Assembly: GCA_965649765.1 (NCBI GenBank)
Contig: OZ287756.1
Coordinates: forward strand, 43,400,001 to 43,464,000
DNA: 64,000 bases
Direction: 5' to 3'
Source of the DNA: Bispira polyomma
Taxonomy: Eukaryota
Shown here: one piece after another, positions 23,001 to 62,385 of the stretch
Position numbering within the stretch: the stretch's first letter is position 1
Layout: the number at the start of each line of letters is the position of its first letter
Translations under genes and position numbers: made by a program
The notes under the pieces: generated by a model
What the model saw: only the letters and a program-made list of their open reading frames with translations
What the model was told of the DNA's origin: nothing
Database searches by the model: none

Positions 23001-24807
23001 CAAACTGACAGAGACTTAGTTCGTGAGGTAAAGTTGTATGTTGACACTGTGGTTAAAACATTACCCTTTTCAGATATTCGCCTAGAACAGGTCAGGCAGG
23101 AAACTTCAAAAGATGTACAATTTAGAGACCTCATGCACACAGTTATTTATGGATGGCCCAACTGCCGGGAGAAGTGTTCTCCTCTGAGTCTCCCATTTTG
23201 GAATATCCGGGCAGAATTAAGTGTAGCAGACGGAGTTATGTTTTGATACCAACATCTATGCGCCCAGATACGCCCAGATATGCTGAAGAAAATTCATCAA
23301 GGTCATATGGGAGTAGTCAAGTGGGCACAGAGTTATTCCAGTATCAAGGGGTTAATTACCTTATCCTGGTTGATTATTATTCAAATTATCCAGAGGTGGT
23401 AACCTTACAAGACATTTCTGCAAACTCAGTCATCAATGGCACTAAATCCATCATAGCGAGATATGGCATACCTGATGAGATAATTTCTGATGGTGGAGGG
23501 TGTTACGCATCGGCTAGATATAAGGCATTTACTGAGGATTGGGACATCAAGCATGTCATTACATCCAGCTACATGAGCAACAGCAACGGGCAGGCAGAGT
23601 CTTGTATTAAGGTAGTCAAAAACATCTTGAAAAAAAGCAAAAATTCTGGTTCTGACTTGTTTAAAGACTTATTAGCCTATCGCACCACTCCATTGAGTTC
23701 CGGGTATTCCCCAAGTGAGTTATTATATCAGCGAAAAATCAGGTCAACACTGCCAATGCATTGGTCACTCCTGTCAACAGCCACTGATGCATATGTGGTT
23801 GAAAATAAAAGCCTAGACAAGCTGAAGCAAGCATATTACTATAATCGTGGTTCAAAACCACTTCAAGACTTTGAAGTCGGTTCTTATGTGCTGGTCTATA
23901 ATTGCAGAAATGATCAGTGGGATACTGAAAGGACATATTGTAAAGAAGATTAGGGATCGTACCTACCAAGTTAAACTGAGGTCAGGCCCAGTCATCACCA
24001 GAGACCGTAGGTTTTTGAAGAAATTTACACTGGACACAGATATTCCTCTGAAATCACAGCTTCTAGTGTTGCCTGAAATGGGTAAGAGTGACGAAACTGA
24101 GACAAGTGAAAAAAAAAGTCTGTCTGGTAAAAAGGTGATTGTCACTTGGCTGGAATCTGAACAAGAAATAAGAAATGTTCCAAAGGAGTGCCAACAAAGC
24201 ATGGTTCAAGCAGACATGACCACAGAATTACAACCAGTGGCGTCCCCATCCCCAGAAACTCGCAAGTCCTCCAGAACAGTGAGGCCACCAAAATGTTATG
24301 GATATGAGTAACAGTAATTGTGAACATTAATTAGCTTTAAGGAACAGAATGGTAAAGATTCTGTCAGGGAGTGACTGTGCTAGTAACCTCTCCTCCCAAG
24401 TTAATGAACTTTTATCATGTTAAAGCATTTAAGAAAAGTTTTTAAGAAATTAGTTTTTAGTTAAGAGTATTAATTTGTTTAACACTGTAACAGGACACAA
24501 GGATACTACAAAACAAAGCTGTGAACTTTCAAACTAGATACAGGACGATGAAGGAGTTATTATTGAAACATACAGTATCTATATATTATTTAATAGTTTA
24601 ATTAAGTTTAAAGAAAAAGCATTGAATCTTTTTTGGAGAAAGGAAATGTCGTATATGAGGTTTAGTATACACCAGCTTTCGGTTGTTGGCCGGACTAAAA
24701 TGTACGCAAATGTCGGATGACCCGTTAGTGCCCTTGAAGAACAGAAATAAACTTTATTATGTTATTTCCTGTGTTTTAGTGAAACCTAACCATAACAGAA
24801 CTTAACA
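20038..24807 (+). mobile_element. Ty3/Gypsy LTR retrotransposon (Mag-like), both LTRs intact, pol disabled
   Basis: 161-bp LTRs TG...CA at 20038-20198 and 24647-24807 with 3 differences, 5-bp TSD ATAAG, PBS tggtgtgagatgtg (tRNA-Leu-like) at 20199 and PPT ggagaaaggaaa before the 3' LTR. Confidence 0.95.
20389..24311 (+). pseudogene. Gypsy gag-pol (two Zn knuckles, protease, RT, RNase H, integrase) with stop, frameshifts and deletion
   Basis: CRYCGTNH..C and CTKCGRRHHFSVMC, LDTGA, SMDD, CDAN*, ETDHK, LVDYYS...ISDGG...NGQAE. Stop at 22648-22650; the integrase Zn finger is cut after HQGHMG. Confidence 0.92.
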
Positions 24808-33300: not shown

Positions 33301-33400
33301 TCTTCAACAAATGTAATACACATGAAGCTCCTGTTTCTTGTTCATCATCTAGGATTCCTTCAAGTGACTTTTCTATAAGCGCATGCACCATGTGCACCAC
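30302..33400 (-). pseudogene. Gmr1-like pol: protease, integrase, RT, RNase H
   Basis: LRETG protease-like motif (~33140), integrase HESIFGGHLG/CxxC/DIVGP/SDQG/NGLVE/WQGPY (32550-31600), then RT DLAKGYW/FVDN and RNase H QTDAS/ETDH (31312-30302). Confidence 0.88.
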
Positions 33401-33716
33401 TCATATTGGTTCTCTTCTTGACCCTACATTGATTTGCTAAATGACCTTTGATACCACACTTAAAGCTGGTTTTGTTGGTAAATGTTCTATCTGTCAGTCT
33501 GTTTGCAAATGTTCTGTCTATTGGTCTGTTTGTAAATGTTCTGTCTGTTGGTCTGCTTGTAAATGGACTATATACAATGTATATATTAAGTGTTATTATT
33601 TACTTATGGTTAGCTTGTGCATATGTTTCAGATGAGGTGGCCCAACTCCTTGCCTCATAGAAATAGCTTAGGGCAGAATTTCATGCAGTTTGTCCACACC
33701 AGAACATACAACTATT

Positions 33717-34725
33717 TACAGTACTCTGTGTCTATGCCGTGAACTATTTGATGAACTTTATAAGAGAACTTGCTTACACTGAGAACAGTTAAATTAGATT
33801 TATGAACTTTAATTAATATTGTATACCTGAATGAGTAATATGTGTATTGTGGGATTTTGACTATTTGTTTGTATCGTGGTTATTTTGTTTATATTTGTAT
33901 ATATGTTCTAAAATAATATTCATAAAATTATTTGTTTACAGCTAGTTTCTTTCCATATTCAGTTTAGCCCTATACAATCTATGACCTTACATTCTCAATG
34001 TAACACAGGTACAATACCCTCTCTTTGGTGATAGAGGGTAGAAGTATATCTACGCATTCCTTCACCAGGAAGGTTGGCCAGGGGTCTAACATACAGGTTT
34101 TAGTGGGGGATTTATTTATAGTTTTTAGGAAACTTGTGAAACTTACGTAAAGCCAGAGACATTAGGTGGAGTTCTGGTACGGGGAATGCAACATGTATTT
34201 TTGGGCCAGAGATCATGTTTATGATATTCTTAATTTTTTCACTGAAGAAAACCCCAAATTTTTCTTCCAGAGATTTTCCTGATTTAAATGCTGGATTATG
34301 GACTCAGGTGTAGTATGGAGGAGTCTGCGCAATTCTTGCCAGAGCTTTCGCCTGTTTTGTAAATTTCCTTCAATAACTGATTTGTAGTGATCTCCTTTTG
34401 CTTTATTTAACAATTTATTGCACCATGCAACCTGTTTCCTTAATCTAGATCTAGTGGACTTTTCTCCTTTCTCCAGGCTCGTTCATATTGATAATGTGCC
34501 AGTACAGGATTTAGTGATCCCAGAATAGCCTACTATCAGAAGGCCGCCATATTAGCCGCACCCTTGCATGTCAAACTTAAGAAGATCATTGATGATTGAT
34601 GTCAGTACTCTAAAAATATTGTGTCTATCCGTAATACTACCTCCATGGGTCAAGTGTTCAAATTAGTCTCTCTGCTTATTTTTTTCATTTTTGAGGCTTT
34701 CGAACCTGGTACCACATACGGCCTG
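33717..34725 (-). repeat. ~1-kb inverted duplicate of ~28760-29757
   Basis: Reverse-complement match covering the recombinase fragment end, the CR1 half, the TSD and the outer ~285 bp of the LTR. Confidence 0.9.
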
Positions 34726-35249
34726 GATACAAACTGAATTATTTCTTTGGCAATATAAATATTGAATCATTTGTTCAGTGGCATTGGGTAAATCAGACAC
34801 ATTGTTGTTCATATAGGTGTGATTAAAGATCTGTGTTGAGTAAAGTATAGACTTGAAGGTGTGTCAGATATTAGTGGTTGGAATACTGCTGTTGTGTGAT
34901 TTAAGCTATAAATTTGTGGTAGATTCCACATGGTGCTAATGGTACTGAAATTGGTGGTGTTGTATTACTGATAATAGACGAGTATCAGTAGGATTTAAGT
35001 GATTAGTGCGTTCAAGCAGTAACTTGTAAAACTATGAAATAAGGCAGTCAAGGAATTTAAGGATGTATATGTGGATTATACAAGAGTTACTAGTTGTGTT
35101 ACATTACAGTGTAGGTTGTTGAATGTACATGATATAGGTGTATGATAGTGCCTACTAGACTATGTGTGTTTGATCTTACTGGTGGTTGATTAGTACGTGG
35201 TAAGAGTTTGTATAGTAACTTGTATAGTAGGTTATATACATTGAGAGTT

Positions 35250-36060
35250 GCTAATATAGATCTGCAGAAACTAGTGGATTTAGGTGAGCGATTAGGCTAT
35301 GAGGGACAAGAGTTGCGTGATTTTATGAAGGAAGAACAAAATAAAGAGCGTGAAGAAAGGGCTTCAAAAAGAGATCATGATAAGTCAATGCTAGAAAAGG
35401 AAAAAGAAGCTGAAAGGCTTAAAGCTGAACTCAAGTTTATGCAAGAGGTTAAGTTAAAAGAACTTGATGTTGAGTTAGAGAAGTCAAGAATGAGTGAGGG
35501 TAGGTTTATGGACAGGTCAGACGTTGGTAATTCTAAAGTAATGTTACCAAAACTTGCACAGTTTAATGAAGTAAAAGATGATATGGATTCTTTTTTGTTC
35601 AGATTTGAAAAATTTGCTTCAAGTCAAGGCTGAAAACATGAAAATTGGGCAATGTATTTGAGTGCTCTTTTGTCAGGAAAGACGTTGGATGATTATAGAA
35701 GGCTCGGTAAACAGAAAGTAGATGATTATGAGGAATTAAAAGTTGCCTTGTTAAGGAGGTTTGACCTGAGTGAAGAAGGTTTTAGAAACAAGTTTCGTAA
35801 CTGTAGTATGGAACAAGGTGAAAGTCCTTCACAGTTTATGGATAGATTGCGAAATTATATGGAAAGATGGATTGAATTTAGTGAGATTGAGATGACTTAT
35901 GATGGACTAGTAGATTTGTTTGTGAAAGAACAATTTTTGTCTAGTCTACATGCAATAAAGCATTATCTGTGTTTTTGAAGGAGCGAACTCCTAAGTGTGT
36001 AAAAGACATGGCATTTTATGCTGAACAATATATTGATGCTCATGGAACATCAGGTTTGTT
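35250..36060 (+). pseudogene. Gmr1-like gag (SCAN/capsid-like), inverted relative to its pol
   Basis: LPKLAQFNEVKDDMDSFLFRFEKFA...LSALLSGK...YEELKVALLRRFDLSEEGFRNKFR...KEQFL; internal stop and frameshift. Confidence 0.8.
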
Positions 36061-37699
36061 TGAAAAAGATAGTCAAGGAGTTGGGCCACCTCATCTAAAA
36101 CATATGCACAAGCTAACCATAAGTAAATAATAACACTTAATATATACATTGTATATAGTCAATTTACATGGATGCTAAATATATAATTCACTAAATTATA
36201 TTATAAAATATATTATACATACCCAAACACAGCCAAGTCAAGATTACAGGAGCACAAAGCAGAACCATTCGAATCAAAAACTCTCACCCAACTAAACATG
36301 TACTAGACCCAATATTGCCACATCAATATGAAACAAGGTGTAAACAGCTCTCACAAAGGGTTTTTCTATTCCTACTTCCTAACACAGTAAAGTAACCTCA
36401 AACTCTTAAACACACAATAAACTAAGTAAACTAAGTAAACTAAATAATAAAGAAATAATACAAATAAAGTAATACATATACGTTTCACCCCAAAATAGAT
36501 ACTATAACTTTATGGACACCAACTACACTACTGCTATCCTTGGATAAACACAATTTAGATATATTTAATAACTTCTTAAATAAAGTACCCTTAACTACAA
36601 TGTACACATCTAGGACAAATACATTTTACCTTTACTAATGTCCACATATATACACCTATAAGGTCAAATTATAATACCAATGTCCACATATATACACCTG
36701 TAAGGTCAAATCATAACAACCTGATAAAATTAAACAGGCTGTAGTAACTCCCCTTATAAAGAAACCATCATTACCAAAAAATGACCTTAAGAATTATAGG
36801 CTAGTATCAGGCCTAAGTTTCATCTCCAAGATAGTGGAAAATATTGTTGCAAAATAAATAACAACATATCAGCAAAAATTGTTTAGGTAATCTTCTGCAG
36901 TCTACTTATAAACAGGGCCATTCCACTGAAAAAGCTCTTCTATCCATCAAAAATGAAGTACATATATCTCTTTCAAAAGGTGAACCTACAGCACTAGTCC
37001 TCCTCGACCTGTCGGCAGCTTTCGATACTATTGATTATGCTACCTTGCTTAAATACTTATCGTCCTGGTTCAGCTTTCATGGTACAGTTCTCGAATGGTT
37101 CACCTTATATATCTCAAATCGATTTCAGTCTGTTAAAATAGGCTCCACTCTGTCAGAGTTGTTTAAGCTTGAGTTTGGTGTTCCACATAGGTCAGTTCTG
37201 GTCCCAATCTTGTTTTCTTTGTACACTACTCTGCTCAGTTATATCATCAGCAAACATAGCAATATTAAGTACCACTTTTAAGCTGATGACACACAGCCCA
37301 TGATGCTCCAGCCTTTTGGAATAAATTACTTGCCGAAATTCGTTGTGCAACCTTACTCACATCCTTTAGAAAAAAACTTAGAACCTACCTATTCGACAAG
37401 ACTTTTCCACCATAGCCCTAAATTCACCCGGCATTTCCATGGTGCTGACCCATGCTTGTCTAATGGAAATGCAAATTGAATAAGGATACTGTCCTGTGCC
37501 TCAGAATCCCCTAAGAAGGAGAGAATAAGCTCTCTAAAAGTTAGATTCGATTAGATTAGATAATGGGGCCTTAATGGCCGACAGGTAGTTTGACAGTGTT
37601 ATAGTGTAGTAGTTCTAAAAAGGATAAGAGGTCAACCACTGTCACCTTGGCAAGGGGTTGATGAATGAAGGCAGTAAAGAGTGTGACCCACCAGGTTAT

Positions 37700-38680
37700 G
37701 TAATTGGACATGATTTTGAGGGGTATATCGTGTTGACTTGCTAGCATGAAGATGTTGCGGGCTTATAATGCTTTGACACTGTCTCTGGTTATATTTTTCT
37801 GGGAACTAAACAACAGAGGATATCATCAATGTAATTCATGATTGTGTGGCCTTCACCTTGCATGCTTAATCTAATGGAACCTGCAAGTCTTTGAAAAATT
37901 ACAGACCCATGTTTGTATCCGAAAGGTAGGGAGCCGTCTACTTAGTAGCCCCTCCGAAAAAGGCCCAGTAAGTCTATTTGTCCAGGGCCTATGGTGACAT
38001 GCCTGAAGGCTCTGCTTACATCTGCCTTAAAAATTAGAGATCCGCTTTCCATCTGCAGTACCTGGTTGGTTTTGGTATCTATGGAGGGGTAAGCAAGTAC
38101 AAAATTTTTTATTTAAATAAGCAGATGGGGAGACAGCAGAATTGACAGACTCACCCACAGGCCAACTGGGGTCAATAATGACCCTCCTGTTATTAAAACT
38201 TGACTTATCTCTGGTCATAAAGGGTGAGGTATGTAAGTCAGTAATAGGAGGTTTATCATAAGGGCCATATATAGCCCCCCATCTCACATTCTTCCTTGAG
38301 GTAGTGGTCCACATGGCTGGGGTAGTGTCTAGCTGAAACATGATTCATGTGGTCCGACTTGGCCTTTAAAGTCCCTATTATAGTCAAGGGGGAATCCAAC
38401 CTAATTAGCATGGGAAGTTTCCAGTTCCAGTGGTCTTTGAGATATGTCCCCCAAACTTAATAGTTGAATTGTGACTGATCAGGTACTTGCAACCCTTTGT
38501 AGTTATGATGGCCATCTTGTCTGAGGTCTCTGTTGAGGTGGAAAATGTCTGTGTACAAGTATTGATCAGTGGTGTGGTCAGTAATTTTGCCCCCCATTTC
38601 ACCAAGAGGAATAAAACCGAATTTTAATTTGTTTTGAATATCTAAAAGTTTATATGTACCACATTGAGAGGCACCACGAA
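37700..38680 (-). pseudogene. DIRS-order reverse transcriptase relic
   Basis: KFGFIPLG, HTSPFMTRDK...RRVIID.SWP.G.SVN, ADVSRAFRH, LPFGYKHGS. Confidence 0.75.
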
Positions 38681-39199
38681 TGGCCACACTGTGTCCTATC
38701 CCCCACACTATACAGGTCTGAGGTATATTTGTCTGGCTGTACACTATCAGGGGGAGAGTTATCTGCATTACACAAGCCTTATACCCCATCCCAATAAATT
38801 ATATGTCTAAGACGGCCCCAGTCAGAATGGGGATTGCGGTTTTGAATTACTGGATGTACTAGCTGTAAGAGCGAACTGGGGGGACCCCTTTTCCTCATCC
38901 GGTGAGCTAACTGACCCCATCCCCATATTTTGTCTTTGTAAGGATGGACCCAGCCGGCATGGGGATTGTGGTTTTAAAATACCAGATATACTAGGATCAC
39001 TAGGATCCTTTCCTGGAACTCTTACTCAAATTTTTACTAGCAATATCCATCTCAAATCACAATCTGCCGTTCTTTTTTAACCACAATTAGACAACATTAA
39101 TACAGCCTTTCTCTGTTTTAAACTATCTTTTGCCGTCCTAACCCACATGGTAAAAACCTATGGATTCCATTACTTACTGCTCTCTGTTCAAATGTTCAA

Positions 39200-42065
39200 A
39201 TAAACCCTAGGCCTTTCCAATCAAATCTAAAAATTGGTGCCTTTAATGCCAGATCTATCCGCAATAAGGTGCCTTCAGTCACTGCCCTTATTGAAATCCA
39301 AGACCTTGATGTGGCCTGTGTGTCTGAGACCTGGCTCAGCTCCATGGATACTTCTGCATCCCTTTCTGAAATCACACCGTCAGGTTATAGATTGTACCAC
39401 TCCCCTAGGCCTGTCAAGTACGGGGGGTGTTGCTATCTTTGTCAAAGTACCCTTTCAAGCGAAATTCTTAATATTGATTACCCTCCATCTTTCGAATGTA
39501 TTACGTGCAAAATTTCAAATGGATCTCAATCATTTTTATTTTTCTCGCTCTATCGTCCACTTAACCCTTCTATATTTGCCTTCAATCAAGATTTTTCTGG
39601 TTTCCTTGAATCTGTTAACCTCCTCTCGCTGGAATCAATTGTACTTGGTGACTTCAACATCAAAGTCGACATCAATAACACGACAACCAAAGATTTGTAC
39701 AGCCTCTTGAATATTTTTAAATTCAAACAGTTTATTTCCGGTCCCACTCATCTCCATAACCACATTCTTGACCTGATCATTGCTCGACCAAACTGATACA
39801 GGATGTATGGGTTACTGACGGGGTGTCTGACCATCTTGCCACTTTTGCACATCTCATGCTGCCCAAACCACTGTCACACAAACCTAAGGTAATAAAATTC
39901 TGCAACATTAGGAAAATTAATATTCCCAAATTTCGGGATGACATACTTGCTTCTCACCTAATTAAACACCCTTGTAAAAATGCAGAAAGTCTCAAGCTAC
40001 AATATAACCACACTTTGTCCTCAATCCTTAACAGTCATGCTCCTTGGGTTTCTAAAACCCTCCCACTTTCTGACCCCCATGAATGGACCAACCCAGACAT
40101 CAAGAAAGCTAAAAGGCGTAAACGTCAACTTGAGCGGCTATGGCGGTGCACTAAATCATCACTTGACAGGAAGTGCTACAGAATCGACACAAACCACTTC
40201 AATGCACTAATGACAAGAGCCAAAAAAGAGCACTATGAATTGATCATCAATGAGAATTCAAATTCACCCAAAAGGTTATGGAGCTCCATAAATAAAATAC
40301 TCCACCGAACAGCTAAAAAAGTTTTACCTGCAAATCATTGCCTCATATTTCTTGCAGAAGTATTTGGAATTTTTCATTGAAAAAAATAACTAAAATTTGA
40401 GAAGGTTTTTTAACAATGCTACAAAGTCTCAAATCTGCTACATTTACCCACTTTCCGAGAACGATGTTCTCCAACTTATAAAATCCAACTCCATCAAGTC
40501 CTGTGAACTGGATTCTATCTCTGCCGCTGTTCTAACAGAATGTCTAGACATTCTCATAACTCCTATCACCAACATCATAAACTTTTCGCTTAGAGATGGT
40601 ATATTTCCCTCTTGTTTCAAAACTGCATATGTCGCCCCCTTGCTAAAAAAACCAGGCCTTGACAAAAATGGGCTAAAAAACTATAGACCAGTCTCTAGCC
40701 TCAGCTTTGTATCTAAATTTATTGAGAAAGCTGTTGCTAAAGAAATTCATGACTACCTTTATAAACAAAATCTAGCTAACTGCCACCAATCTGCCTACAG
40801 AAAATTTCACTCCACTGAGAGTGCCCTCCTTTCAATCAGTAATGACATTAACCTTGCCTTGGATCATGATGAAACTGTACCCTTCTCGATCTCTCTGCAG
40901 CTTTTGATACCATCGACCTTGGCCTACTCTTTGACACCCTTAAACAGTGGTTTGGTCTTAATGGTACTGTTTTTGGTTGGATCAAATCGTACCTTGCTCT
41001 TAGAACCCAAAAAATCAAATTGGGCGACCACTTTTCATCCTCTTTTAACCTACCATTTGGAGTACCCCAAGGGTCGGTTCTCGGCCCTTTACTGTTTACC
41101 CTCTACACCCATCCTCTCAGTGCAGTCATCAATAATAACAATGTTAAACATCACATGTATGCTGATGACTGTCAAATCTCTCTCTCTCTTAACACTCAGA
41201 ATGCCAGATACAACCTGGATTAACTTGCTAACTGTCTCTCCTCAGTTCAGGCGTGGATGAACTTCTCCAAACTGAAACTAAACCCTGAGAAAACAGAATT
41301 TATCCTTATTAGAAATAAGAAACACAGTGAATACTTATGATCACTTTTCCCAATTACTCTGCTGGGCAATGAGATTCAACCTGCAGACCAGGTCAAAACA
41401 CCTAGGTGTCACTATCGACCCTGCTTTTTCATTTCTTCCTCACATTAACAGCATCCACCGCTCCTGTTATTATCACATTTGAGACCTCAAAAGAATCAGA
41501 AATTATCTGTCACTAGATATTGCTATCACTGTGACCAACGCTCTTGTAAGTAGCCGCCCTAACTGCTGTAATTCTCTTCTGTATGAAGCCAATAAGTCCC
41601 ACATAAACAAGTTGCAGTCCATTCAAAACTATCTATGTAGAGTTATCTTTCGTTTAGGAATCCGTACTGATGTCACTCCATACCTCAAGAAACTTCACTG
41701 GCTTCCTATTCACTATCAAATCCTGTTTAAAATGCACATAACCATTTTAAAGCTGTTGTCTCTCAACAGCCTCACTACCTTGCTAATAAACTCTCTTTCA
41801 GCAGCCTTAAAATGGGAAAAGGACTCCTTGTTTCCTCTAAAAAGACTGCTTGAAACACTTTTGGGATTTAGGAGAAACCGTAAAACCTATCTCTTCAGGC
41901 TCGCCTATCCGCCGTAGTCCTCTTCCTGGGAGCTGACGCATCCATCCTTACAACCTGGCTGTGTTTTTTTCATTTTTCTATTGGCTGATTGATTCTGATG
42001 TTGCGACTTAGAAGATGCCTATCACCAATAAGGCGCATTAAAAATGTATAATACAATACAATACT
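39200..42065 (+). mobile_element. CR1/L2 LINE ORF2 (APE endonuclease + RT), near full length but frameshifted
   Basis: VSETWL, LYRP, VLGDFN, PTH...LDLI, SDH, NYRPVS.L, QSAYR..HSTE, GVPQGSVLGP, YADD, LHWLP and an (aatac)n tail. Confidence 0.9.
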
Positions 42066-46110: not shown

Positions 46111-46139
46111 AAAGAATGACAACATGCTTATCCAAGCAA

Positions 46140-46695
46140 GAACTATTTTGCCAAGATACAACGTGGCAAATTAATCATTGACAATAAAACATTTTCTTTA
46201 GATCAGCTGCAAAATCTTCCACCCAATCTGCAACCGCAAAGTAATCTCACCAGAATATATAATGACAAAGCAGCTTTCTTTACCAAGCAGTCTCCCTTGA
46301 GCAACCACTACCAATCTCCTTTTAAAATAGAGAGCATCAAATTTAAGTGTTCAGAACAATACTTGATGTATGTAAAAGTTCTATACTATTTAGTGACCAG
46401 CGACAACCCAATAAGATACTGCAATCGAGCGACCCTGTTCAATAGAAAAAGATGGTTTACTCTATCAAAGGCTTCAATAGAATCTGGACTGCGAGCCAAG
46501 TTCACACAAAGCAGCTACTGTGACTCTTTTCTAAAGAATCTCAACGGCAAAGTCATAATCAAAGCCAACCCAAATGGTAATTTTTGGTTATGTGGAGTTT
46601 TCTTCTGGGACGATCGTGTCTGGAACTCCAGTGACTGGCCAGGTAAAAATATTCATAGCACATTATTGATGCAAGTGAGAGACTCTCTTTACTGA
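46140..46695 (+). pseudogene. LINE ORF1-like C-terminus fused to a NADAR (YbiA-like) domain, internally deleted
   Basis: GKLIIDNKTFSLDQLQNLPPNLQP followed by FFTKQSPLSNHYQSPF...SEQYLMY.K...GLRAKFTQ...ANP...FW..G...PGKN..S.LLMQVR. Confidence 0.75.
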
Positions 46696-49163: not shown

Positions 49164-49451
49164 ACAGCATTCATTCCATGACTACAACATATATGAAGAC
49201 TCGGTTACTTGTAAAATAGCGCACAAACATAAATAAAAGAATAAAAATAAAGTGTAAAATAAGTTTAAAGAAAATTTGAAAGTTTGTAAAATGGCGTTCT
49301 ACCCTTTCAATTTCTTAAATTAAAGTGAGGTTTTATGGCTTTTGGCGGGAATAGCTATAGAATCTAGGCCAACTGCCATCCAATAAAACGCAAAGGTCAT
49401 TGAACCAGAATGGTTTTAGTAAGAGAGTTTAAGGTCTGCACTGAACTCACT

Positions 49452-49483
<32 letters not shown>

Positions 49484-49790
49484 ATGGGTCTACCTAGCAT
49501 ACTGTATTACATGTTATGCCATGTATTTTGTAGTTTTTTTGATTATCCTTTATGTTTTATATATCACCTCATAGGATCATACTTTCTACTACTTAAGGAA
49601 ATTTTATTATTCCTTCAATTTTATTCATATTCATTTAACTTATCTTACTGATACCTATTGACAGTTTATTAAAAACTCTGTCTTTTTTTCATTTTTACCA
49701 TACTTCTCCATTTGTATGTTGAATTGTTACGATCAATTCTTACTTTATTCATCAGTTTAATTAAAGTATGGCTTCATCTTCACATATTTA
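49164..49790 (+). repeat. ~620-bp direct repeat, copy 1 (copy 2 at ~61795-62385)
   Basis: acagcattcattccatgactacaac...aaagtatggcttcatcttca occurs twice. Copy 1 has a ~29-nt poly-C where copy 2 has tccc. Confidence 0.9.
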
Positions 49791-50960: not shown

Positions 50961-51550
50961 ATGTTTTGTGTATCACCTCATAGGATCATACTTTCTACTA
51001 CTTAAGGAAATTTTATTATTCCTTCACTTTTATTCTTATTCATTTAACTTATCTTACTCATACCTATTGACAGTTTATTTAAAACTCTGACTTTTTTCAT
51101 TTTTACCATACTTCTCCATCTGAATATTGAATTGTTATAATCAATTCTTACTTTATTCATCAGATTAATTAAAGTACCACTGTAGTAATGTGATTTACAC
51201 ATCCAACATGTTATGCCATGTATTTGTGGTGTTTGCATAGCAAGTCCACCCCAGGGGACTGCTACATCAGTCCAACCTCCTTTTTCTATCACACTACTTT
51301 AATCCCTAGCGAATGCAATAGCATTATCCAACTTTCTGTCCATCTGGGCCTTGTCCAATCACAGCATTAGCTATTAGTGACCCCTAAGCTAGGATAGCTA
51401 TCCTCCATATTGAATTTGTGTTTTCACCTGTGAACAGGACATTTAGAAAATTGAAATTTTAACCACGTATTTACACTGAATTGGTTTTATTTATATTTTA
51501 TTTTTTTTTATTAACTGACGTGGTACGGGAACTAGTGATTGTTGTGTGAA

Positions 51551-52783
51551 ATGGGGAAAACAAAAGCAACTCCTGTGTTAAGCAGCAAGAAACGGACCAC
51601 AAAGACAACTTCAACTAGTACAGCCAAGAAAAGGGGTACTGGTCAGGTAACTACTACTAATACTCACGATCAATCAGAAATACATAGAACAGTCATTGCC
51701 GACACTGCGTGTCCTCTTATTGATTCTCAGTTATTGACCAGTTCAAATGGATCATCTAGCCAAGCCGGGCTCTCATCTCAGGCCGTACCCCAGTCACAAG
51801 CCGAGTCACAAAGCATGTCCGAGGTTCTTTCCATCCTGCGTGGTCTGGAGACCTCCAACGCTAACATAACCCGGCGATTGCAACTCGTAGAGGACAAACA
51901 GACAGTTACACCCGCTAATTCTCCATTACACACCATGAGGGATGGTACGGTGGTCCAACAGAGACACGAGGGTTATTCGTTACCTCTTCCCCCTCCCAGG
52001 TACAACGGGGTCGCGCAGCCGCTGGCTCAACCTATGATGCAACCACCAACAAGTCAGGGTTACAACACAGATGGCATTGTCCCCAGTCTCGATGCATTGA
52101 GATCTTTTCCAAACGTGCAGGCGGCCGTTACCAGGCAGCTGGCTGACTACGAAGCCTTGGCCCAGAGGGGTCTAGTCCAGGGTAAGCACTCAATCAGGCA
52201 GAAGTCTAGTCGTTATAACTCCACAGATATTACTTTAGCTGATCCCCAACTCAGATGGTCTAACGAAGGTTGGGGTGGGGGATCGACTCGTCGAAGGCCA
52301 GTCTTTGACGACCTCACGTTGCCGCAGTGGGCGGCTGGCCAGCTGGCCAACTCGCTACAAGTAAGTGATCCGGCAACAATGAAAGCTATGGTGAACCAAG
52401 TGGTACACGCACTACGGGATGCAGCCACACTTCCGTGGCCTGCTGTCAGGACAGCCTGGGCTGTCAGTATGCATGAGATCGAGGAAGGCAGGCTGTCCTG
52501 GCAGGACAACACTCAGTGGGCACTGAATCGCATCAGTGCCTCCCAGATGGCTATGGTAGGCAACAATGGCAGTAACTTGGCTAACGGGGCTTCTTCAGAT
52601 AGTAAATCCATCTGTAAGCTGTTTAATAATGGAAAGTGTACTCACAAGGCGGATCATGGCAATTATCGTCATGTATGTTGGTGTTGTAATAAGACATTAG
52701 GAAAGGACGCGTCGCACCCAGTGTTTAAATGCTTTAAAGCGAATGTAAGTAAACAGCCAGACAAACAACAAGGTAACATCTAG
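51551..52783 (+). CDS. Gag-like ORF1 of element A with C-terminal Cys/His zinc fingers
   Basis: Open 410-codon frame; FDDLTLPQWAAG, W..VR...A...HEIEEGRLSW and CKLFNNGKCTH...HVCWCC...H....C. Confidence 0.85.
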   Translation: MGKTKATPVLSSKKRTTKTTSTSTAKKRGTGQVTTTNTHDQSEIHRTVIADTACPLIDSQLLTSSNGSSSQAGLSSQAVPQSQAESQSMSEVLSILRGLETSNANITRRLQLVEDKQTVTPANSPLHTMRDGTVVQQRHEGYSLPLPPPRYNGVAQPLAQPMMQPPTSQGYNTDGIVPSLDALRSFPNVQAAVTRQLADYEALAQRGLVQGKHSIRQKSSRYNSTDITLADPQLRWSNEGWGGGSTRRRPVFDDLTLPQWAAGQLANSLQVSDPATMKAMVNQVVHALRDAATLPWPAVRTAWAVSMHEIEEGRLSWQDNTQWALNRISASQMAMVGNNGSNLANGASSDSKSICKLFNNGKCTHKADHGNYRHVCWCCNKTLGKDASHPVFKCFKANVSKQPDKQQGNI

Positions 52784-53718
52784 GGCCACGATTCACAACC
52801 AGTCGGACGAACATTAGGTAGTGATAAGGGTAATTCAATGATGAACGGTAACAGTAAATTTGTAAAAGAGTTTAATATAAAGGACAAAAACAGTGAATTA
52901 GGTTATTGCGACAGAAGTATGTCTGAAATTAATACAATTGTGCAAAGTTCCAATAGTAATGATTATCAGCAGATGATAATGTCAGATAGTACAAGGTTTG
53001 TCAATAATGTATTCAACACTGATATAAAGGTGAACTTTGTTGATAATGATGTCTTTAATAATTTTGCAGTTTCAGTAGATGCTGGCGACAACTACCAGTA
53101 TGAAACCAAGAATGTAAATGAATGTATTCAATTTCAGAGCAGGACCCAGTCGGGTCACCATAGATGGGACAGGAGCACTGAGGCCTGCATTTCAAATGGG
53201 AGCAGTCACTATGCTAATTCACCAGCTTGGAACAAAGAGTCACACACGTGTCAGGTATCAGTTACCAATTGGAAAACTTTTTGTGGGGAAATTCAAAACT
53301 TGGCCCCAATTGTTTACATTAGGGATAGGGATGGAAAATTCTCAGGTTATTTCCACATGTTTTATGACGTGACTGCTGCCAAGTGTGTATATGCTCGTGT
53401 TGAATTTCCACCTAGCCAAAACCTTTGTATTATTCAAACCTTCACCAGGCTGTGATCAAGCAAGCTGCTGATACATTTTATTATTTCGAAAGAGATAATG
53501 CCTGTTTCAAGCAGTTGGGTTTTGATTATACTGAATACATGAACAGGTTAGTAAATGCACTTATTAGTGACAGTGAAGACGAAACACCTGACAGTTGCCA
53601 TAAGTCAGACAATTGTGCAGACTTGTCAAATGTAAGTACACAAAAACCAAGTGAGACTGTAAACAGTCTGATTTGTGATAAAATATACATGAACTAGTCG
53701 AGCAATGAATGCACTCAA

Positions 53719-55518
53719 ATGGTTGATAGTGTTCGAGCAAACAAGGATTTGTACAAAGAAATTAAGGACTTTAATGACCCCGAGAAAACCATGGGTTTCT
53801 TGGCACTTTCCTCAACAGCATTCACATTCATAGGTCCTGACAAACCTGTTGAGAGAATTGAAACAGTAGAAGACATGCTGCAAGTGGCTTCTGTTATCAG
53901 AAACACTGCACTTCCCAATTATAGACAAGCAAGGGTTCCCCTGGTGTCAGGACTTAATCCAGATGCATGGGATGAAGTTTTCCAAGATTATCCTGACCAG
54001 TTGCTGTGTCAGTACATTAGATTCGGCTTTCCTCTTTCTCTCACCAATCCAGAAATGCTTAACAATGCCTCTGTCACCAATCATTATTCTGCCCTCCAAC
54101 ACACAAGTAATGTGAGAGAATATCTGGTTAAAGAAAGTAATAAGGGTGCCATGTTGGGCCCAGTGAAGGAGGTTAGCTCCTCCCATTACCATTGTTCACC
54201 ACTTCTCACACGTCCCAAGGACATTACTAGTCGTAGGGTAATTCTTAACCTCTCATACCCACAAGGTAATTCGCTTAATGAGAATGTTGATAAGGATATA
54301 TTTGATGGGAAAAAATTTATTCTGAAATTTCCTACAATCGATGATATTACTAGTGCGGTCAAAGTCACAGATGATCTGGTATTGTTTAAAATCGACGTAG
54401 CTCGCGCTTTCCGTAATTTGCGTGTAGATCCTGTCGACGCTGTAAAATTAGGAATCCAGTTTGAAAAGGGTAGTTACATAGATCCTGCGGTGGCGTTTGG
54501 CTGGATTCATGGCAGCGCGGCGTTTCAACGCTGCTCTGACGCAATAGCGTCATATATGCGCAAAAACGGTTTCAATATGTTCTGCTATATCGACGATTAC
54601 ATTTGCGTCTCCAATAGAGTAGAGGCTCACGGGGGTTTTCAGATTTTGACCAAACTGCTAGACTATTTAGGTCTCCCCATGAATGCCAACAAACGCACCC
54701 CACCTAGTACTAGCATTACTTGTTTGGGTATTAACATTGACACTGTCGCTGGTACTATTAGCATCCAGCATGGGAAAATAGAAGAGATTCTTGAATGTGT
54801 GTGCGACGTGTTTAACAGGCGCTTCATAACGCACAGTTGTTTTCAGTCCCTCTTAGGGAAACTTCTGTATGTGCACAAATGCGTCAAGCCGGCACGCACT
54901 TTTATTAATAGACTGCTTCACGCATTTAGAAACAACAAGGGTAAGAAGAAATTTGCTATTTCTCAAGACATGCGGAACGACTTAGCGTGGTTCAAGCAGT
55001 TCTTACAGACATTTAACGGAGTAACTTTCATTGACCATCCTATGATTCAAAACATGAGTGAGTTACATTTAGACGCTTGCCTTACCGGTTTAGGAGGCGT
55101 GTGGAAAGATGAGGTGTACGCTACACCATATTTCAATGTTTTTGGCAGAGAGTTGACAATAGTTCACTTAGAGATGCTGAATATCATTCTCGTGTTTCGT
55201 GTATGGGCGTTAAAGTGGGCGCATCAACGGGTTTTGTTTCACTGTGACAACATGGCCGTAGTACTGGTTGTGAATTCACAAAAAACTAAGGATGACTTTC
55301 TGGCCTCATGTTTGAGGAATATCTGGCTGCTAGCAGCCACACATGACATCACAATTGACATACAACACATTCCAGGAAAAAACAATGTGATTGCAGATGC
55401 TCTTTCTAGACTATTATCAGATAAACCTCCTACTGCAGAGCTAACTGTTAAATTACAAAATTGTTATAAATGGAATGAGGTCCCTATAAGGTACTTTGAC
55501 CTGGCCTTATCTGTGTAA
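53719..55518 (+). CDS. Reverse transcriptase/RNase H of element A
   Basis: FGFPL, NHYSA, KIDVARAFR, YIDD, LDAC, HLEMLN, HCDN, IPGKNNVIADALSR. The upstream linker (52838-53697) has a frameshift and a stop. Confidence 0.92.
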   Translation: MVDSVRANKDLYKEIKDFNDPEKTMGFLALSSTAFTFIGPDKPVERIETVEDMLQVASVIRNTALPNYRQARVPLVSGLNPDAWDEVFQDYPDQLLCQYIRFGFPLSLTNPEMLNNASVTNHYSALQHTSNVREYLVKESNKGAMLGPVKEVSSSHYHCSPLLTRPKDITSRRVILNLSYPQGNSLNENVDKDIFDGKKFILKFPTIDDITSAVKVTDDLVLFKIDVARAFRNLRVDPVDAVKLGIQFEKGSYIDPAVAFGWIHGSAAFQRCSDAIASYMRKNGFNMFCYIDDYICVSNRVEAHGGFQILTKLLDYLGLPMNANKRTPPSTSITCLGINIDTVAGTISIQHGKIEEILECVCDVFNRRFITHSCFQSLLGKLLYVHKCVKPARTFINRLLHAFRNNKGKKKFAISQDMRNDLAWFKQFLQTFNGVTFIDHPMIQNMSELHLDACLTGLGGVWKDEVYATPYFNVFGRELTIVHLEMLNIILVFRVWALKWAHQRVLFHCDNMAVVLVVNSQKTKDDFLASCLRNIWLLAATHDITIDIQHIPGKNNVIADALSRLLSDKPPTAELTVKLQNCYKWNEVPIRYFDLALSV

Positions 55519-55524
55519 TTTCAG

Positions 55525-56498
55525 GTTCTGCCAGTTCCACTCATACACTTGTTCAATCAGCCTGCAACAGAATAGACTTGGCACTGCGACCAAAGACCAC
55601 TACAGCTTACAGTAACCAATTCAAGACATTTTTAGCTTTCTTACATGTTGCTGGCATTAAACACATTAATGTTTCATCAGTTCTGGCTTTCTTAGAATAC
55701 TTAGCACAGAATAGCCTTTCACCGGCTGTCATTGCCAATTACCTCTCATCACTTAAATTTATGGCTAACAAATTACAGTGGAGTATGGCTCCTTTTACAC
55801 ACAACTCTGTTTCTTTATTTACGAGAAGCATTACCATCAACTCTACTTTCAGGCCTAGACCTAAGGGATTGTTTGATATACATCAGTTAACACAGATATC
55901 CCAAGCTTGTCAGATATTGCAGGATCCAGTACTTTTTAGGGCCATTTTCCTTCTAGCCTTTTTTGGCTTCTTGAGACTTTCCAATCTGGCTTCTCACTCT
56001 AGGGCAGCGTTTGACCCATCTAGGCACTTTCTTAGACAGGATATTATCTTTGCCCCTCCTGGGGCCCATGTCATCTTGAAATGGGCTAAGAACCTTCAAA
56101 ACAGATCAGACTCCCACATTATACAAATTCCTGTACTTCAAAACCAAATTTTATGTCCAGTAAGGGCTATACAGCAGCTTATCTTGTCTAGGCCTCTCCC
56201 TCCATCTGCACCACTGTTTGCAGTTAACTCACCACCATTTTACCCAGTCATAGAGACACATGTGAGAGTCGCATTACAGAGAGTTTTAGAACACATAGGC
56301 ATTCCATACCATTCACACGGGTTCCACACATTTAGGAGGTCGAGGGCCACATTTGCTTTCAATAAAAACGTATCACTGCAGAATATTATGTCCCATGGCC
56401 TGTGGAGGTCTTCAGCTGTATGGACCTACCTACAGAAGACCTCCCAAGCTGCTTCAGTGGTGCCTCTCACCTTTGCTGCGGCTATCCCTCCTTCTTAG
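55525..56498 (+). CDS. Tyrosine recombinase of element A (no ATG start; begins at a splice acceptor)
   Basis: GFLRLSNL, WAK, HTFRR, HGLW, VWTY give an intact R-K-H-R-W-Y set. Preceded by aatttcag| at 55524. Confidence 0.9.
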
Positions 56499-56844
56499 TT
56501 GGGCTTGGGGCTTAAAATTCCATCCTGAAATTTTAACTGAATTTGATTGTCAACCTGTACATAAGCTAACATGTAAATAAAAACCTCAAATGCAATCTTT
56601 TACTGTCTTATAATAAACTTACTTATTAACTTATAACTTATCACACCACCATTGGACTGTGTAGATTATCCCATTTTTTTTCTCTCCTTTATACATGTTA
56701 TGCCATGTTGTGTGGAGTTTTAGGATACATCCCATTTATTTACAGTGCCCTGACCTTGAGTTTTTAAGAAATTGACCTTGCAAGAAAGACTAGCAGTTGG
56801 GATATATATATTTAATATATTCCTACACATATAGTTACAATTGA

Positions 56845-57056
56845 GGCCACCTTAAAAGAAAAAATTTTTTAGAGCTTAGTCAAAGTTCACCTTAAGAGTG
56901 ACTTTGCGTCGACTAAGTTTAAGATTAACGTAACTTTAAGTTTAAGTTTAATTTTACCAAAATTTAAGGTAACCTTAACGAATTACATGATTTCTGCTGG
57001 CCTTAGCCTTACAACTGTCCAGTTAAGGTTACGAAATGTTTGACTATAAGGTGGCC
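56845..57056. mobile_element. Short palindromic MITE-like element
   Basis: GGCCACCTTA...TAAGGTGGCC termini flanked by ttga/ttaa, with internal nested inverted repeats (cttagtc/gactaag, caaagttcac/gtgactttg). Confidence 0.55.
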
Positions 57057-57133
57057 TTAAGTATATAATAAATTTTACAAATTATAGCATAAAAATCATA
57101 GTAAAAACAAAGACAATAACCACCAAGGCCCAA

Positions 57134-58126
57134 CTAGGAAGTAGAAATAGGGTTAAGAAGGGATTGGAGAGGTAGGGCTACCTGGTCAGAGGCAGCATGG
57201 TCCTGAGTGATATATCTCCACACACACTCAGAAGACCAAATGCCCTGACTTTGAATGTCTTGAAGAGGAACATGGACGTTAAAGGCCATTGTCGCCCCAG
57301 AGCGCCGAAAAGTATGGAATGTGATATTAGCTTGCGTTTTGTTTAGTCTGCTCAAGATATCCTTAAGATTTCTACGTATTTTGCTGTCAGTAAGGGTTAT
57401 CCACCGAGAATTAGTTTTAATTTGAAACAATGGGGTGTTCTTACTGCCTGGTGTAATTGCCAGCAATTTTTTGAGGGCTGTAACCGGGCAGATGGTTTTA
57501 TTTTGCAGTGATGGAATTTTAATGGCTTTGATTGTGTCTCTAGCTTGTAAAGTTTTTGTCCATTTTATGATTATATGGGCACCTGGAGGGGCGAAGATAA
57601 TATCAACCCTAGCTAACTGGTGCAATGGTGAATAAGTAGCTTGAGAGTGGGGGACTAAGTTAGAGATTTTGAGGAAAGAAAAGAAGGCAAGCAGATAGGC
57701 TGCCTTGTAAATTTGCCCCATATACATGGAATCACAGATGGTGGCTATGTTTTGCAATAAATCGATGTCTATAATGCCATTTATTTTGGCTTTGAATGGT
57801 TTGTTTAGCACCAGAGCTTTTTGAAAATATTTAATTCTTTGATCTGCAAAAGCAGTAATTTGGAGACCATACAATGACATACTAGCCTTAATGGCGGCGA
57901 GGTAATTTGAAACAGAAGTATGCGACGTGTTGTTCACTACTAATACTTCTAGAAAGGCTAGCACTGATGTGGGGGTAATATTGTAAATTGAGATGTTAGC
58001 AAAACAGCAGTAAGCTAAAAAATACTTTGAACATGGCTGCGTATGCTTTTTGTGTAGAAGGGCGAAAAGCCTGATGTGCTCTATAGGCTGCTCTTTCTGC
58101 AAGCTTTGACACCCAGGTTGCAGAGC
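57134..58126 (-). pseudogene. Tyrosine recombinase of element B, disabled
   Basis: FSFLKISNL (catalytic R replaced by K), HTFRRSGA, VWRY. One extra T in the run at ~58017-58022 shifts AFRPSTQKAYAAMFKVF out of the main frame. Confidence 0.85.
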
Positions 58127-58143
58127 CTGAAAAATTTATAAAG

Positions 58144-59800
58144 CTAAATTGACCAATTTACCTCTAGGAGGTCATCGTTGACCTCTATCCAAGTAGGATT
58201 TTGCATTAATTCATTTAATTTTGCTTCATTATTAGGGGTAATAGCCCATCTGGAGAGTAAGTCAGCTGTAACGTTTCTTTTACCAAGGATATGTACAGTT
58301 CTTAACTCTATGTCTACCTTTGCAGCTTCCATATAAATGTTTCTGGTCATTGCTGCCAGAGTAAGATCATATGTCTTGCCTGAATTTAGAATAGATACAA
58401 CAGCTTGATTGTCACAATGTACAAGCAATTTGCGTCCAGTCCATTGATTTTTCCAAATTCTGATTGCAACTAAGATATTAATCATTTCGAGATGGACTAT
58501 GGTGTAATTTCTATAGCCAAGCCAAATTTCTTTGGTATAAACTTCATTATTACAGCAAGCACCTTGGCCTTGCAGACATGCATCTAGGTGTACCCGATCT
58601 GTTACCGGTCTATGTTCACAGAAAGTCATGTCATTAAAGCTTGTGAGAAAAGTGTTGAACCAATTGAGGTCCTGATGAAATGTTATATCAAGCATATTTT
58701 GTGAACCCCTTAGGGTATCTAGCATTCTATTAAGATAAGCTCGTGAAGTTCTGACACATTTGGAGATGTATAATAATGAACTGAGTAGAGATTGAAGCTC
58801 TTTTTTGGTGCATGCTTTTTTATTAGTCCATGAATGACATATTTGCTTTATCTCAGTGAGTTTAGTTTCCGGTATGGACACAGTAAAATCCTCTGTATTC
58901 ACTAGAACCCCTAGACATATTACTTTGGTACTAGGTGGAACTTCTTTTTTCTGGCTAATGGCAAATCCTAATTTTTGGAAGAGTTCTTTTAGTTTTTCAA
59001 ATGAGTCGCCAATTGTGTCTGAAAGGCCGTAACCAATGACGTCATCTTTATAGTTTATGACGTCATGACCTAGTGACGTCATCATAAACCGAATCACGTC
59101 ACTGAGGCTTTGAAATATTGCACTGCTGTGGCGATAGCCAAATGGCAGGCACGTGTCAATATAGTAGTCATTGAGTTGAAGCCCTAGTAGGTCATAGTCG
59201 GCTGGGTCGATCTTTATGTGCCTAAATGCACGACTAATGTCTAACTTATATAATAATGCTCCTTTACCTAATTTGACAATATTCCGAGTAATGTCATCTA
59301 CTGTGGGAAGCGTGAGAATAAAAGGAGTATCTAAATACTGATCTCTATTTATAGCTGAGTTGACTGCTTGGCCTTGTGGGCAACTTAAGTCAGTTATTAC
59401 TCTACGGTGCTTAGCATCCGGTTTAGGCCAAGTCATGAAGGGAGAGATATGTAATTCAGATAGTGGGGGTTCTTTGAATGGTCCAATTATTGCACCAAAT
59501 TCTTTTTCTTCTTTAAGATAAGCTTTCACATCATTTTCGAGCAAAGTTGCAGAGCTATGATTTGCTCCCTTATTTTCTAGAGGACAAGCTCTATTAAAGT
59601 CTAGGGGAAAGCCGAATTTAATGAGATGTATCAATTGATTATCCCAGTAATTGTCTAAGAATTTTTCCCATTCATTGACCTGTAGTTGAGAGACCACTGG
59701 TATCTAGGCCCCCAGGAAATTTTGACAATTTTGACTTTTGACAACTTTGTGCAATTCTAGTGGATCACCTGAGTTCCTAGAGGAATAAAACCAAACTTTT
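58144..59800 (-). pseudogene. RT/RNase H of element B
   Basis: KFGFPL, NHSSA, KLDISRAFRH, YKDD, LDAC, HCDN, ADLLSR. In-frame stops at ~59705 and ~59757. Confidence 0.88.
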
Positions 59801-60505
59801 CTTTATTTTGGCTGTTCCATTTCTTGAATAGGGGATTGTTTTCTGCCTTTGCAATAACCTCCCTGTGTTTTCTTTTTATCTGAAGTTGTACTTCGTATTT
59901 GTCCTCACATTGACTACTAGGGACATTGTTAGCCGTTTTGTCATTAGAATAGGATGTGGTATCATTTCCAGTGAAATTTTGTAGGGGTGTGAATCTATTT
60001 TGACAAATTATGCCACCTTTGTCACTCTCCCCACGACCCCACGTTTCTCTAGAGATTACCTTGTTGACTCCATTCATAGCAGAGGTGCGACTCTGACCAT
60101 TGTTCTGGTCCTGAACATTTAATTGAATATTTTCTAGACATTTCACACCACACTGTGGGGTGTGATATTATTTCTTCATACCTTCATGAATTTTCCTGAA
60201 ACTGTGTGCATTATTTACAGATACAGTTGTGTACATTTTATTATTGATACTTGAGCGACAATTGGAGGGACTTTTCTGGCCATTTCTTATTAACCTTTCA
60301 GAAGAATACTTTTGACCTTTAGTACCCATGTTTTGTTTCACTACTTGAGCATAGGATTTGTTTGCAAACCTAGCCCAGTCAGCCCTCCAATTGTCACTCT
60401 GGTTTTTGACATTAGTGTTATGTACAGTACGACTACTACAATACTGATTCTGATCTTTGTTATATACAGGAATATTACAATCATATTTTCTATTATAACC
60501 TTTAT

Positions 60506-60539
60506 GCACTGCTGTACTGCAGTGCCTTACTCGTTTTTT
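60506..60539 (-). promoter_or_regulatory. Candidate -1 ribosomal frameshift signal at the gag-pol junction of element B
   Basis: A AAA AAC (60539-60533) in the gag frame, 7-nt spacer, then the hairpin GCACTGC-agtaca-GCAGTGC. The -1 frame is open into ORF 60168-60509. Confidence 0.75.
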
Positions 60540-61579
60540 GAACCATTATGCTCAGCAAATTTGCTAGTCTTGTTCCTGTTACAATCTTTTGAGGCATGTG
60601 GAAACGATTTGCCAAAGCCTAAGCAAGTAGCACAAATGTGCAAGTACATCTGCCCCTTCGTCTCATGATCAATTTTATGAGGGCATGAGCCTTTTTGGAA
60701 GTATCTGCAAGGGATTCCCTTGTCACTTCCTTTATGAACCCTATTTGAATTTGTAAATGTAGAATGACTGGTATTATTGACTACTTTTTGGGCATGGGCC
60801 CTTCTAATTCGATCAATTTTGGTGGTCTCTTCCCACGAGACTTTGCCTTCCTCCATGCGACATAACAGGACTGCATGACTAGCTTTCGCTGCCGTCTAAG
60901 AAAAATCGTTACAGTCCTCCATAAGATCTTGAGCATAGTCTAACATGGCATTTTTTAAATCGACATTGTTCTCGTCCCTAACTATTGAACAAAACCCCGA
61001 AACCCATTGCGCCATAGAAAGGCTATCATATGTAGTGCGAGTTTTTGTAGTACCTCCTAGAATATGGTTCTGAGGCCAGGCAACCTGGCGTTTTACCCAA
61101 ACAGTATCAGTTCCACCTCTTTGTGACTTAAAATTACCTTTCTCATTTATCCCAGCCAAGTCACGCAGCCTTGAATCCACAGCATGCTGGAGATACTCTG
61201 AGGTTTTCAATGTAGTCAGTGAGGGGACCAGTGTGTCTTCTTTATCTGTAACCGTGGCCAGTGTAGGTTGAGACATCACTGCCTGGACATCAATAGGAAC
61301 AGTCGACTGCACGGACGTGGCTGCAGCCACAGGACGGGTCACTGGAGCTGTTGATACAGCGTTGGCTGCAGCAGCATTGGCAATTTGACTGTTCTCTGTC
61401 CGCTCCACACGTCTATTCAGACCCTTAAGTTCTTCCAATATGTGTAGATTTATCGCCGCACTAGAAGTGTCACTTTGTTCAGTAATTTTAGGTTCATTTA
61501 CAAAAGGACAATTGTCATTTATCGGTTTTCTATGGCTTGTTTTGCAAGCTCTACAATCATATGTAGCACGAGGTGCCAT
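60527..61579 (-). pseudogene. Gag-like ORF1 of element B (W-to-stop at 60896-60898)
   Basis: N-terminal CRACKTSH...C, YDSLSMAQWVSGF, MLDY..DLMED..DFS*, and C-terminal CRYFQKGSCPH...HICATC...H...C. Confidence 0.85.
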
Positions 61580-61794
61580 TTTTCTGCAAATATAAGCACA
61601 AAGATCTTTGGTATATGCGGATTTTACTGGTTGAGGTTGTAAACTTTCTAGAAAACAATTTTATTAAATTTCAAATCAAATTAATGACATCCCTCAACCA
61701 TAGCCCTAAAAGAAGAGCAAAATTCGCATATATCAAAGATATTTTGACAAATCACTCCAGTCAGGTGCCAGCAAGTTCACTTTTTTAATCCAGA

Positions 61795-62385
61795 CAGCAT
61801 TCATTCCATGACTACAACATATATGAAGACTCGGTTACTTGTAAAATAGCACACAAACATAAATAAAAGAATAAAAATAAAGTGTAAAATAAGTTTAAAG
61901 AAAATTTGAAAGTTTGAAAAATGGCGTTCTACCCTTTCCATTTCTTAAATTAAAGTGAGGTTTTATGGCTTTTGGCGGGAATAGCTATAGAATCTAGGCC
62001 AACTGCCATCCAATAAAACGCAAAGGTCATTGAACCAGAATGGTTTTAGTAAGAGAGTTTAAGGTCTGCACTGAACTTACTACTCCCGATGGGTCTACCT
62101 AGCATACTGTATTACATGTTATGCCATGTATTTTGTAGTTTTTTTGGATTATCCTTTATGTTTTGTGTATCGCCTCATAGGATCATACTTTCTACTACTT
62201 GAGGAAATTTTATTTTTCCTTCAATTTTATTCATATTCATTTAACTTATCTTACTGATACCTATTGACAGTTTATTTAAAACTCTGATTTTTTAAATTTT
62301 TACCATACTTCTCCATCTGTATATTGAATTGTTATGATCAATTCTTACTTTATTCATCCATTTAAATAAAGTATGGCTTCATCTT
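61795..62385 (+). repeat. ~600-bp direct repeat, copy 2
   Basis: Matches 49164-49790. Confidence 0.9.

Follow-up and report, generated by a model that had tools for sequence, protein, structure and literature searches.

In the Ngaro-type family to which element B of Bispira polyomma belongs, the tyrosine recombinase (YR) is probably made from a spliced RNA as a fusion with the front part of Gag, Gag(N)-YR, with pol lying within the intron; we put the probability of this reading, which is built on genomic sequence, at about 0.83. The two motifs at its centre, TTNYAG ahead of the YR and G/GTA in the middle of gag (a slash marks the exon-intron boundary), are a real and strongly conserved splice-signal pair: a GT donor and a YAG acceptor, both conserved and in matching phase, as in spliceosomal GT-AG introns. 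That this donor is joined to this acceptor is argued from the matching phase. A conserved splice of this kind would replace the published frameshift proposal for the YR in these families and, if it is true, the real protein would be a Gag-YR fusion of 460-580 aa, which bears on annotation, recombinase biochemistry and host control through splicing.

Two YR retrotransposons arranged tail to tail

The window, the whole stretch of 64,000 nt that was analysed (OZ287756.1, positions 43400001-43464000; genome of 1.04 Gb in 75 contigs), is AT-rich and crowded with retroelement remains. Decayed gypsy-like elements, LINE pieces and an ORF with a NADAR domain occupy 20386-24311 (+), 30521-35978, 36862-41917 and 46120-46695. 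Two YR retrotransposons stand tail to tail, A on the plus and B on the minus strand, each carrying a gag-like ORF, RT/RNase H (RT/RH) and a YR. Their features are as follows (L numbers denote sampled loci).

About 56741-62104, minus strand: element B, a decayed Ngaro-type YR retrotransposon, A1-gag-pol-YR-B1 with A2/B2 absent; 94% match to L031-L034 across the span, A2/B2 being present in sister L033
61895-62103, minus strand: A1 split direct repeat of B, 95.6% to the A2 repeat of L033
60527-61579, minus strand: gag-like ORF1 of B, with N-terminal Cys/His motif, long helix, helical core and CCCH finger; stop at 60898-60896 in copy B
61138-61579, minus strand: predicted coding exon 1 of B, 147 codons plus G
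61132-61141, minus strand: predicted phase-1 splice donor of B, GT at 61137-61136
58127-61137, minus strand: predicted 3011-nt intron of B, containing the 3' half of gag and the entire pol
60506-60539, minus strand: predicted -1 frameshift signal for pol of B, slippery heptamer 60539-60533 and hairpin 60525-60506; a conserved island in run contigs
58144-60545, minus strand: pol (RT/RNase H) of B, in pieces; 840 aa open in relatives L036/L038
58127-58132, minus strand: predicted splice acceptor TTNYAG of B
57134-58126, minus strand: tyrosine recombinase exon of B, SAM-like plus catalytic domain; 329 codons open in L031-L034
56916-57122 at least (match bounded by the end of locus L033), minus strand: B1 split direct repeat of B, 91% to B2 of L033
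51234-56662, plus strand: element A, of a related family; joined frame open for 534 aa

The order gag, RT/RH, YR on one strand is that of Ngaro elements. Split direct repeats in the arrangement A1...B1 A2 B2, whose internal pair lies downstream of the YR, were found in L033, L036, L059, L079 and L092 among 18 loci compared with themselves, and the window copy of B retains A1 and B1 only. No methyltransferase was detected by Pfam at E<=1, four intact pol ORFs ending shortly after RH; no inverted terminal repeats were seen, and no SGNH hydrolase ORF was found in the stretches checked. The catalytic residues R152, H270, R273 and Y304 of the YR are conserved, and its model matches Cre (E 2e-7), while a sequence search of the PDB returned no match for it. 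On structural grounds, namely split direct repeats in intact relatives, lack of a methyltransferase and a modelled Cre-like fold, the family is placed with Ngaro, as this group is defined in excerpts from PMC9210276 and PMC4157794.

Other copies add to the picture of the locus. A second copy of the 5' end of B, with its flank, lies at 49164-49782 (92% over 620 nt). Both elements are inserted in pieces of a single host repeat, and the empty site of A is visible in run contigs. Family A (51234-56662; L071, L073) is young and multi-copy, with at least 40 matches at 97-100% among the best 40 scored, and three compared copies have common ends without split direct repeats. Several copies (B at 56741; L031, L032, L034, L038, L064 and L080) stop about where A2 begins in the complete sisters L033, L036, L101 and L079, which suggests recombination at the internal B1/A2 junction.

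A phase-matched pair of predicted splice sites in both elements

On the minus strand, gag of B opens with an ATG at 61579, and 61579-61139 comprise 147 codons; G61138 closes the exon, with GTAATT running from 61137. The acceptor AG lies at 58128-58127, its end 17 nt beyond the RT/RH stop (which ends at 58144), and exon 2 begins at 58126. The junction codon, G plus the first two bases of exon 2, encodes Gly in phase 1, and the N-terminal peptide of the YR then follows in frame. An earlier, sequence-only reading of this stretch had proposed exactly such a pair, at 61138/58127 with a phase-1 join and the acceptor just past the RT/RH stop, and its coordinates, phase and entry into the YR were all confirmed. 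Its join of gag residues 1-147 to the YR gives the junction peptide claimed, but copy B itself cannot yield the full Gag-YR product: the joined frame closes 43 codons past the junction because of a frameshift in the YR near 58017. In the B sisters L031, L033 and L034 it stays open over 483-484 aa, and in all 14 copies tested, which were picked for an open YR, over 462-583 aa. The polypyrimidine tract that the same reading saw before the AG is actually AT-rich sequence with a fixed TTNYAG and no long pyrimidine run.

Element A, as had also been proposed, shares the pair, with a phase-1 donor after 52181 and an AG at 55523-55524, and A and B are indeed strongly diverged in protein (37% identity in YR, 40% in RT and 27-32% in gag). 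To call the two cases independent was an overstatement, for A and B are homologous; an independent origin of the splice pair was rejected, and its presence in both elements is conservation because they have a common ancestor. A shared position of the donor holds only loosely: MAFFT puts the two glycines in different columns, but a few residues apart within the same variable linker, which separates a conserved helix from the KS motif. The Gag model, of mean pLDDT 68.5 and with no match found in the PDB, puts the donor at the end of helix 134-152, ahead of a low-confidence linker.

Conservation of acceptor and donor

Conservation was followed through 82 loci, comprising 80 from three genome searches, hand-picked over identity bands, and the two window copies. 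The YR anchor was found in 78 of the 82 and the gag anchor in 70. Clustering by YR DNA gave 37 clusters at 80% identity and 19 at 70%; these are related to each other, so cluster counts are not independent.

In 35 of 37 clusters, and in 73 of 78 loci (in one through a neighbouring AG in a frameshifted copy), an in-phase YAG stands 19-20 codons ahead of the RP motif; the background of in-phase YAG averages 1.9 of 35 per codon offset, with a maximum of 15. The site is displaced by a deletion in one of the two misses (L070), and the AG is altered in the other (L094). Positions -6/-5, which were not used for selection, are TT in all 35 clusters. Genome-wide, TTNYAG lies exactly 50 nt upstream of the B-clade YR motif in 399 of 478 copies, and a reversed control gave none; as for the 79 copies without the exact spacing, the first 13 exceptions (among the first 100 listed) show small indels, variant acceptors, or AG point changes or duplication, all with pol upstream. 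The acceptor AG sits beyond the RT stop, and the residues that the acceptor would encode vary among clusters.

The gag donor glycine reads G/GTA by majority in all 33 anchored clusters at 80% (four of the 37 have no anchor), in 18 of 18 at 70% and, by locus, in 66 of 70. As a control, GGT makes up 31% of the codons in the remaining conserved Gly columns of gag, RT and YR of these clusters (478/1526, with many columns double-counted via two queries), the highest column reaching 78%. The column of RT Gly246 of B and Gly325 of A has GGT in 28 of 36 clusters, far over the remaining control columns. The codon after the donor GGT is AAG in 15 of the 33 clusters, AAC in 7, AAT in 4, ACG in 4, ACT in 2 and AAA in 1; where it encodes Lys, it is AAG in 15 of 16 cases, compared with 162 of 517 in YR. 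A occupies position -2 in 30 of 33 clusters and G position +5 in 19 of 33, B-clade donors frequently being without the +5 G.

Across families, the sequence-only reading had expected homologues to keep the acceptor, as 35 of the 37 clusters do, and a GGT codon followed by AA at the donor. GGT is followed by A in 33 of 33 anchored clusters, but the second letter varies (AA in 27, AC in 6), and AA was rejected as a fixed requirement. Rejected likewise was a general start GSA after the junction, where the residue is G in 26 clusters, D in 5, A in 3 and V in 1 of 35.

Could protein constraint, AT-rich DNA or shared ancestry have produced these motifs incidentally? The genome is AT-rich, one RT Gly column does reach 78% GGT and the clusters are related; however, these same clusters show mixed codons in other Gly columns, and the acceptor hexamer is kept while the spacer from stop to AG ranges from 6 to 23 nt. 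We regard the probability of this explanation as negligible.

Probable recoding for pol and probable splicing for YR

A different route to the YR has been proposed in print for Ngaro. According to Poulter and Butler 2015, as quoted second-hand in an excerpt from PMC13003380, the YR frame lies at -1 to that of RT/RH, which it overlaps, and a programmed frameshift probably gives access to it; fungal Ngaro YRs may be in frame or shifted, as an excerpt from PMC3783388 has it. Ribosomal frameshift or read-through from the RT/RH end would fit the commonest state among our clusters, the -1 frame with a short overlap (19 of 33). The frame from RT to YR is, however, 0 in 10 clusters and +1 in 4, several of these being multi-copy, and at least seven frame changes are needed on a tree that covers 29 of the 37 clusters (in the eight excluded, the YR had no long open stretch or no RT stop lay nearby). 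RT and YR do not overlap at all in 11 of 33. These frame changes and the clusters without overlap therefore argue against the published frameshift proposal. Moreover, only 3 of the 18 minus-one overlaps contain a slippery heptamer, a conserved slippery site with a hairpin is found instead at the B-clade gag-pol junction, and a frameshift leaves TTNYAG and G/GTA unexplained. We consider this route very unlikely.

The end of gag in the B clade carries a slippery heptamer, followed after 6-7 nt by a GC hairpin (within the stretch in 9 of 10 folded), and L036, L038, L064, L101 and L102 have pol open in the -1 frame. In the A clade, gag ends in UAG-G in 11 of 11 (window 52781-52784, plus strand, in element A), and the in-frame pol of L071 is open for 928 aa. 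The two clades thus likely use different recoding signals for pol, a -1 frameshift in B and UAG-G read-through in A. These clade-specific signals and the open pol frames therefore make it likely that recoding serves pol and splicing serves the YR.

A start of the YR at an internal ATG, through re-initiation after the RT stop or from a short transcript of its own, would be in keeping with the Met at codon 31 in 17 of 17 B-clade clusters and with a Met near the YR start in some distant relatives. The A clade does not follow suit, its first Met being at 9, 79 or later, or absent from the first 200 codons. Nor would the B-clade Met mark a natural beginning: T24 and Y28, which precede it, do not vary in any of 20, a start at 31 falls mid-helix and would cut two helices of the YR model, and codons 1-30 after the AG, before the first B-clade ATG, vary like coding sequence (0.38/0.27/0.59). 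Such a start appears extremely unlikely.

The acceptor might also be real and paired with a different donor, for instance that of a short leader exon, with the mid-gag donor serving another acceptor. The pairing is, after all, inferred from phase, 8 of 33 clusters are tied in a crude donor score, and a donor-like site is placed elsewhere in distant relatives. Against this, the acceptor requires a phase-1 coding exon, and the mid-gag site is conserved and in phase 1; by the crude score, on a U1 consensus, it ranks first or shares first place in 31 of 33 clusters, with no better match within about 1 kb. A different partner therefore has a small probability, and the mid-gag donor remains our preferred one.

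Spliced forms were sought in several kinds of data. No intron-less genomic copy came from four pattern searches with family and clade patterns (positive control for one clade pattern): the family patterns gave one point variant and the clade patterns three unspliced copies. None was present among 30 family-A loci or the 13 acceptor-pattern misses, and DNA searches across the donor gave no match ending there among the best 40 each. No Gag-YR fusion was seen among 269 homologous proteins, those fetched resembling unspliced gene calls, and a protein search with the pre-donor gag segment gave no matches. The donor-acceptor joint was not among 15 of 66 and 15 of 89 joints listed; three runs consist of contigs from one study with even cover and are no evidence either way. 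Introns are reportedly mentioned, in 2004 by Goodwin and Poulter, for some YR elements. The literature searched, which took in PMC7192593, PMC4495291, PMC6681497 and PMC9341512 but did not extend to Goodwin and Poulter 2004 or Poulter and Butler 2015, either of which may discuss introns, held no report of a gag-to-YR splice.

Distant relatives

Metagenomes provided 25 loci at about 30% YR identity, in which 18 YR starts could be examined. A pyrimidine-rich phase-1 YAG lies near the YR start in 8 of the 18; in four (L121, L122, L124 and L128) the RT overlaps the YR without a clear acceptor, and the rest are decayed or unclear. All eight distant relatives with a gag match have AG/GTR at a Gly which, relative to the donor position in this genome, lies about 27-30 codons further downstream, an uncontrolled observation. 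Donor-like AG/GTR at a Gly after the gag WP motif, in a shifted position, was noted in L112-L118, L130 and L131. Qualitatively, homologous proteins in other assemblies often start I-S-G/D or F-T-G-like, as an acceptor read through would give.

A proposed three-product programme

Under the splice model, unspliced RNA would serve for Gag, for Gag-Pol and as the template for reverse transcription, Gag-Pol arising by -1 frameshift in the B clade and by UAG read-through in the A clade. In a fraction of the RNA, the phase-1 mid-gag donor would be joined to the acceptor just past the RT/RNase H stop, giving Gag(N)-YR, and the non-optimal B-clade donor may hold splicing at a partial level. The Gag front, with its metal-binding motif, long helix and pre-donor helix, would then carry the YR into the Gag/Pol particle. 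More tentatively, at somewhat short of even odds, Ngaro retrotransposons in general may run such a retrovirus-like programme of three products from one transcript (Gag, recoded Gag-Pol and a spliced Gag(N)-recombinase that loads the integrating enzyme into the particle via the Gag front), an old strategy in which the donor slid between lineages.

Comparison with known systems

In the spliced env RNAs of retroviruses and gypsy-type elements, one primary transcript yields pol by frameshift or read-through, and the 3' gene is expressed once pol has been spliced out. By contrast, the 3' gene here is the integrating enzyme and would retain 130-260 Gag residues. Ty1/copia retrotransposons set protein ratios through partial splicing of gag RNA, according to PMC5580714; the splice described there gives Gag alone, whereas the one proposed here would give a Gag-recombinase fusion.

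Among YR retrotransposons, the closest likeness is to Ngaro-like elements of the order DIRS, to which our families are assigned by structure. In excerpts from PMC9210276, PMC4157794, PMC3783388 and PMC8547959, these have the same gag-RT/RH-YR order, the same A1...B1 A2 B2 repeats with the internal pair after the YR and likewise no methyltransferase after RH. The difference lies in how the YR is expressed, apparently by a splice onto the Gag front here and by a frameshift in the proposal of the review quoted in part in PMC13003380. PAT-like and DIRS1-like elements are YR retrotransposons as well, and PAT shares the split direct repeats and a Gag zinc finger (PMC4157794, in excerpt); both, however, have a methyltransferase and DIRS1 has inverted terminal repeats, neither of which was seen in the elements described here.
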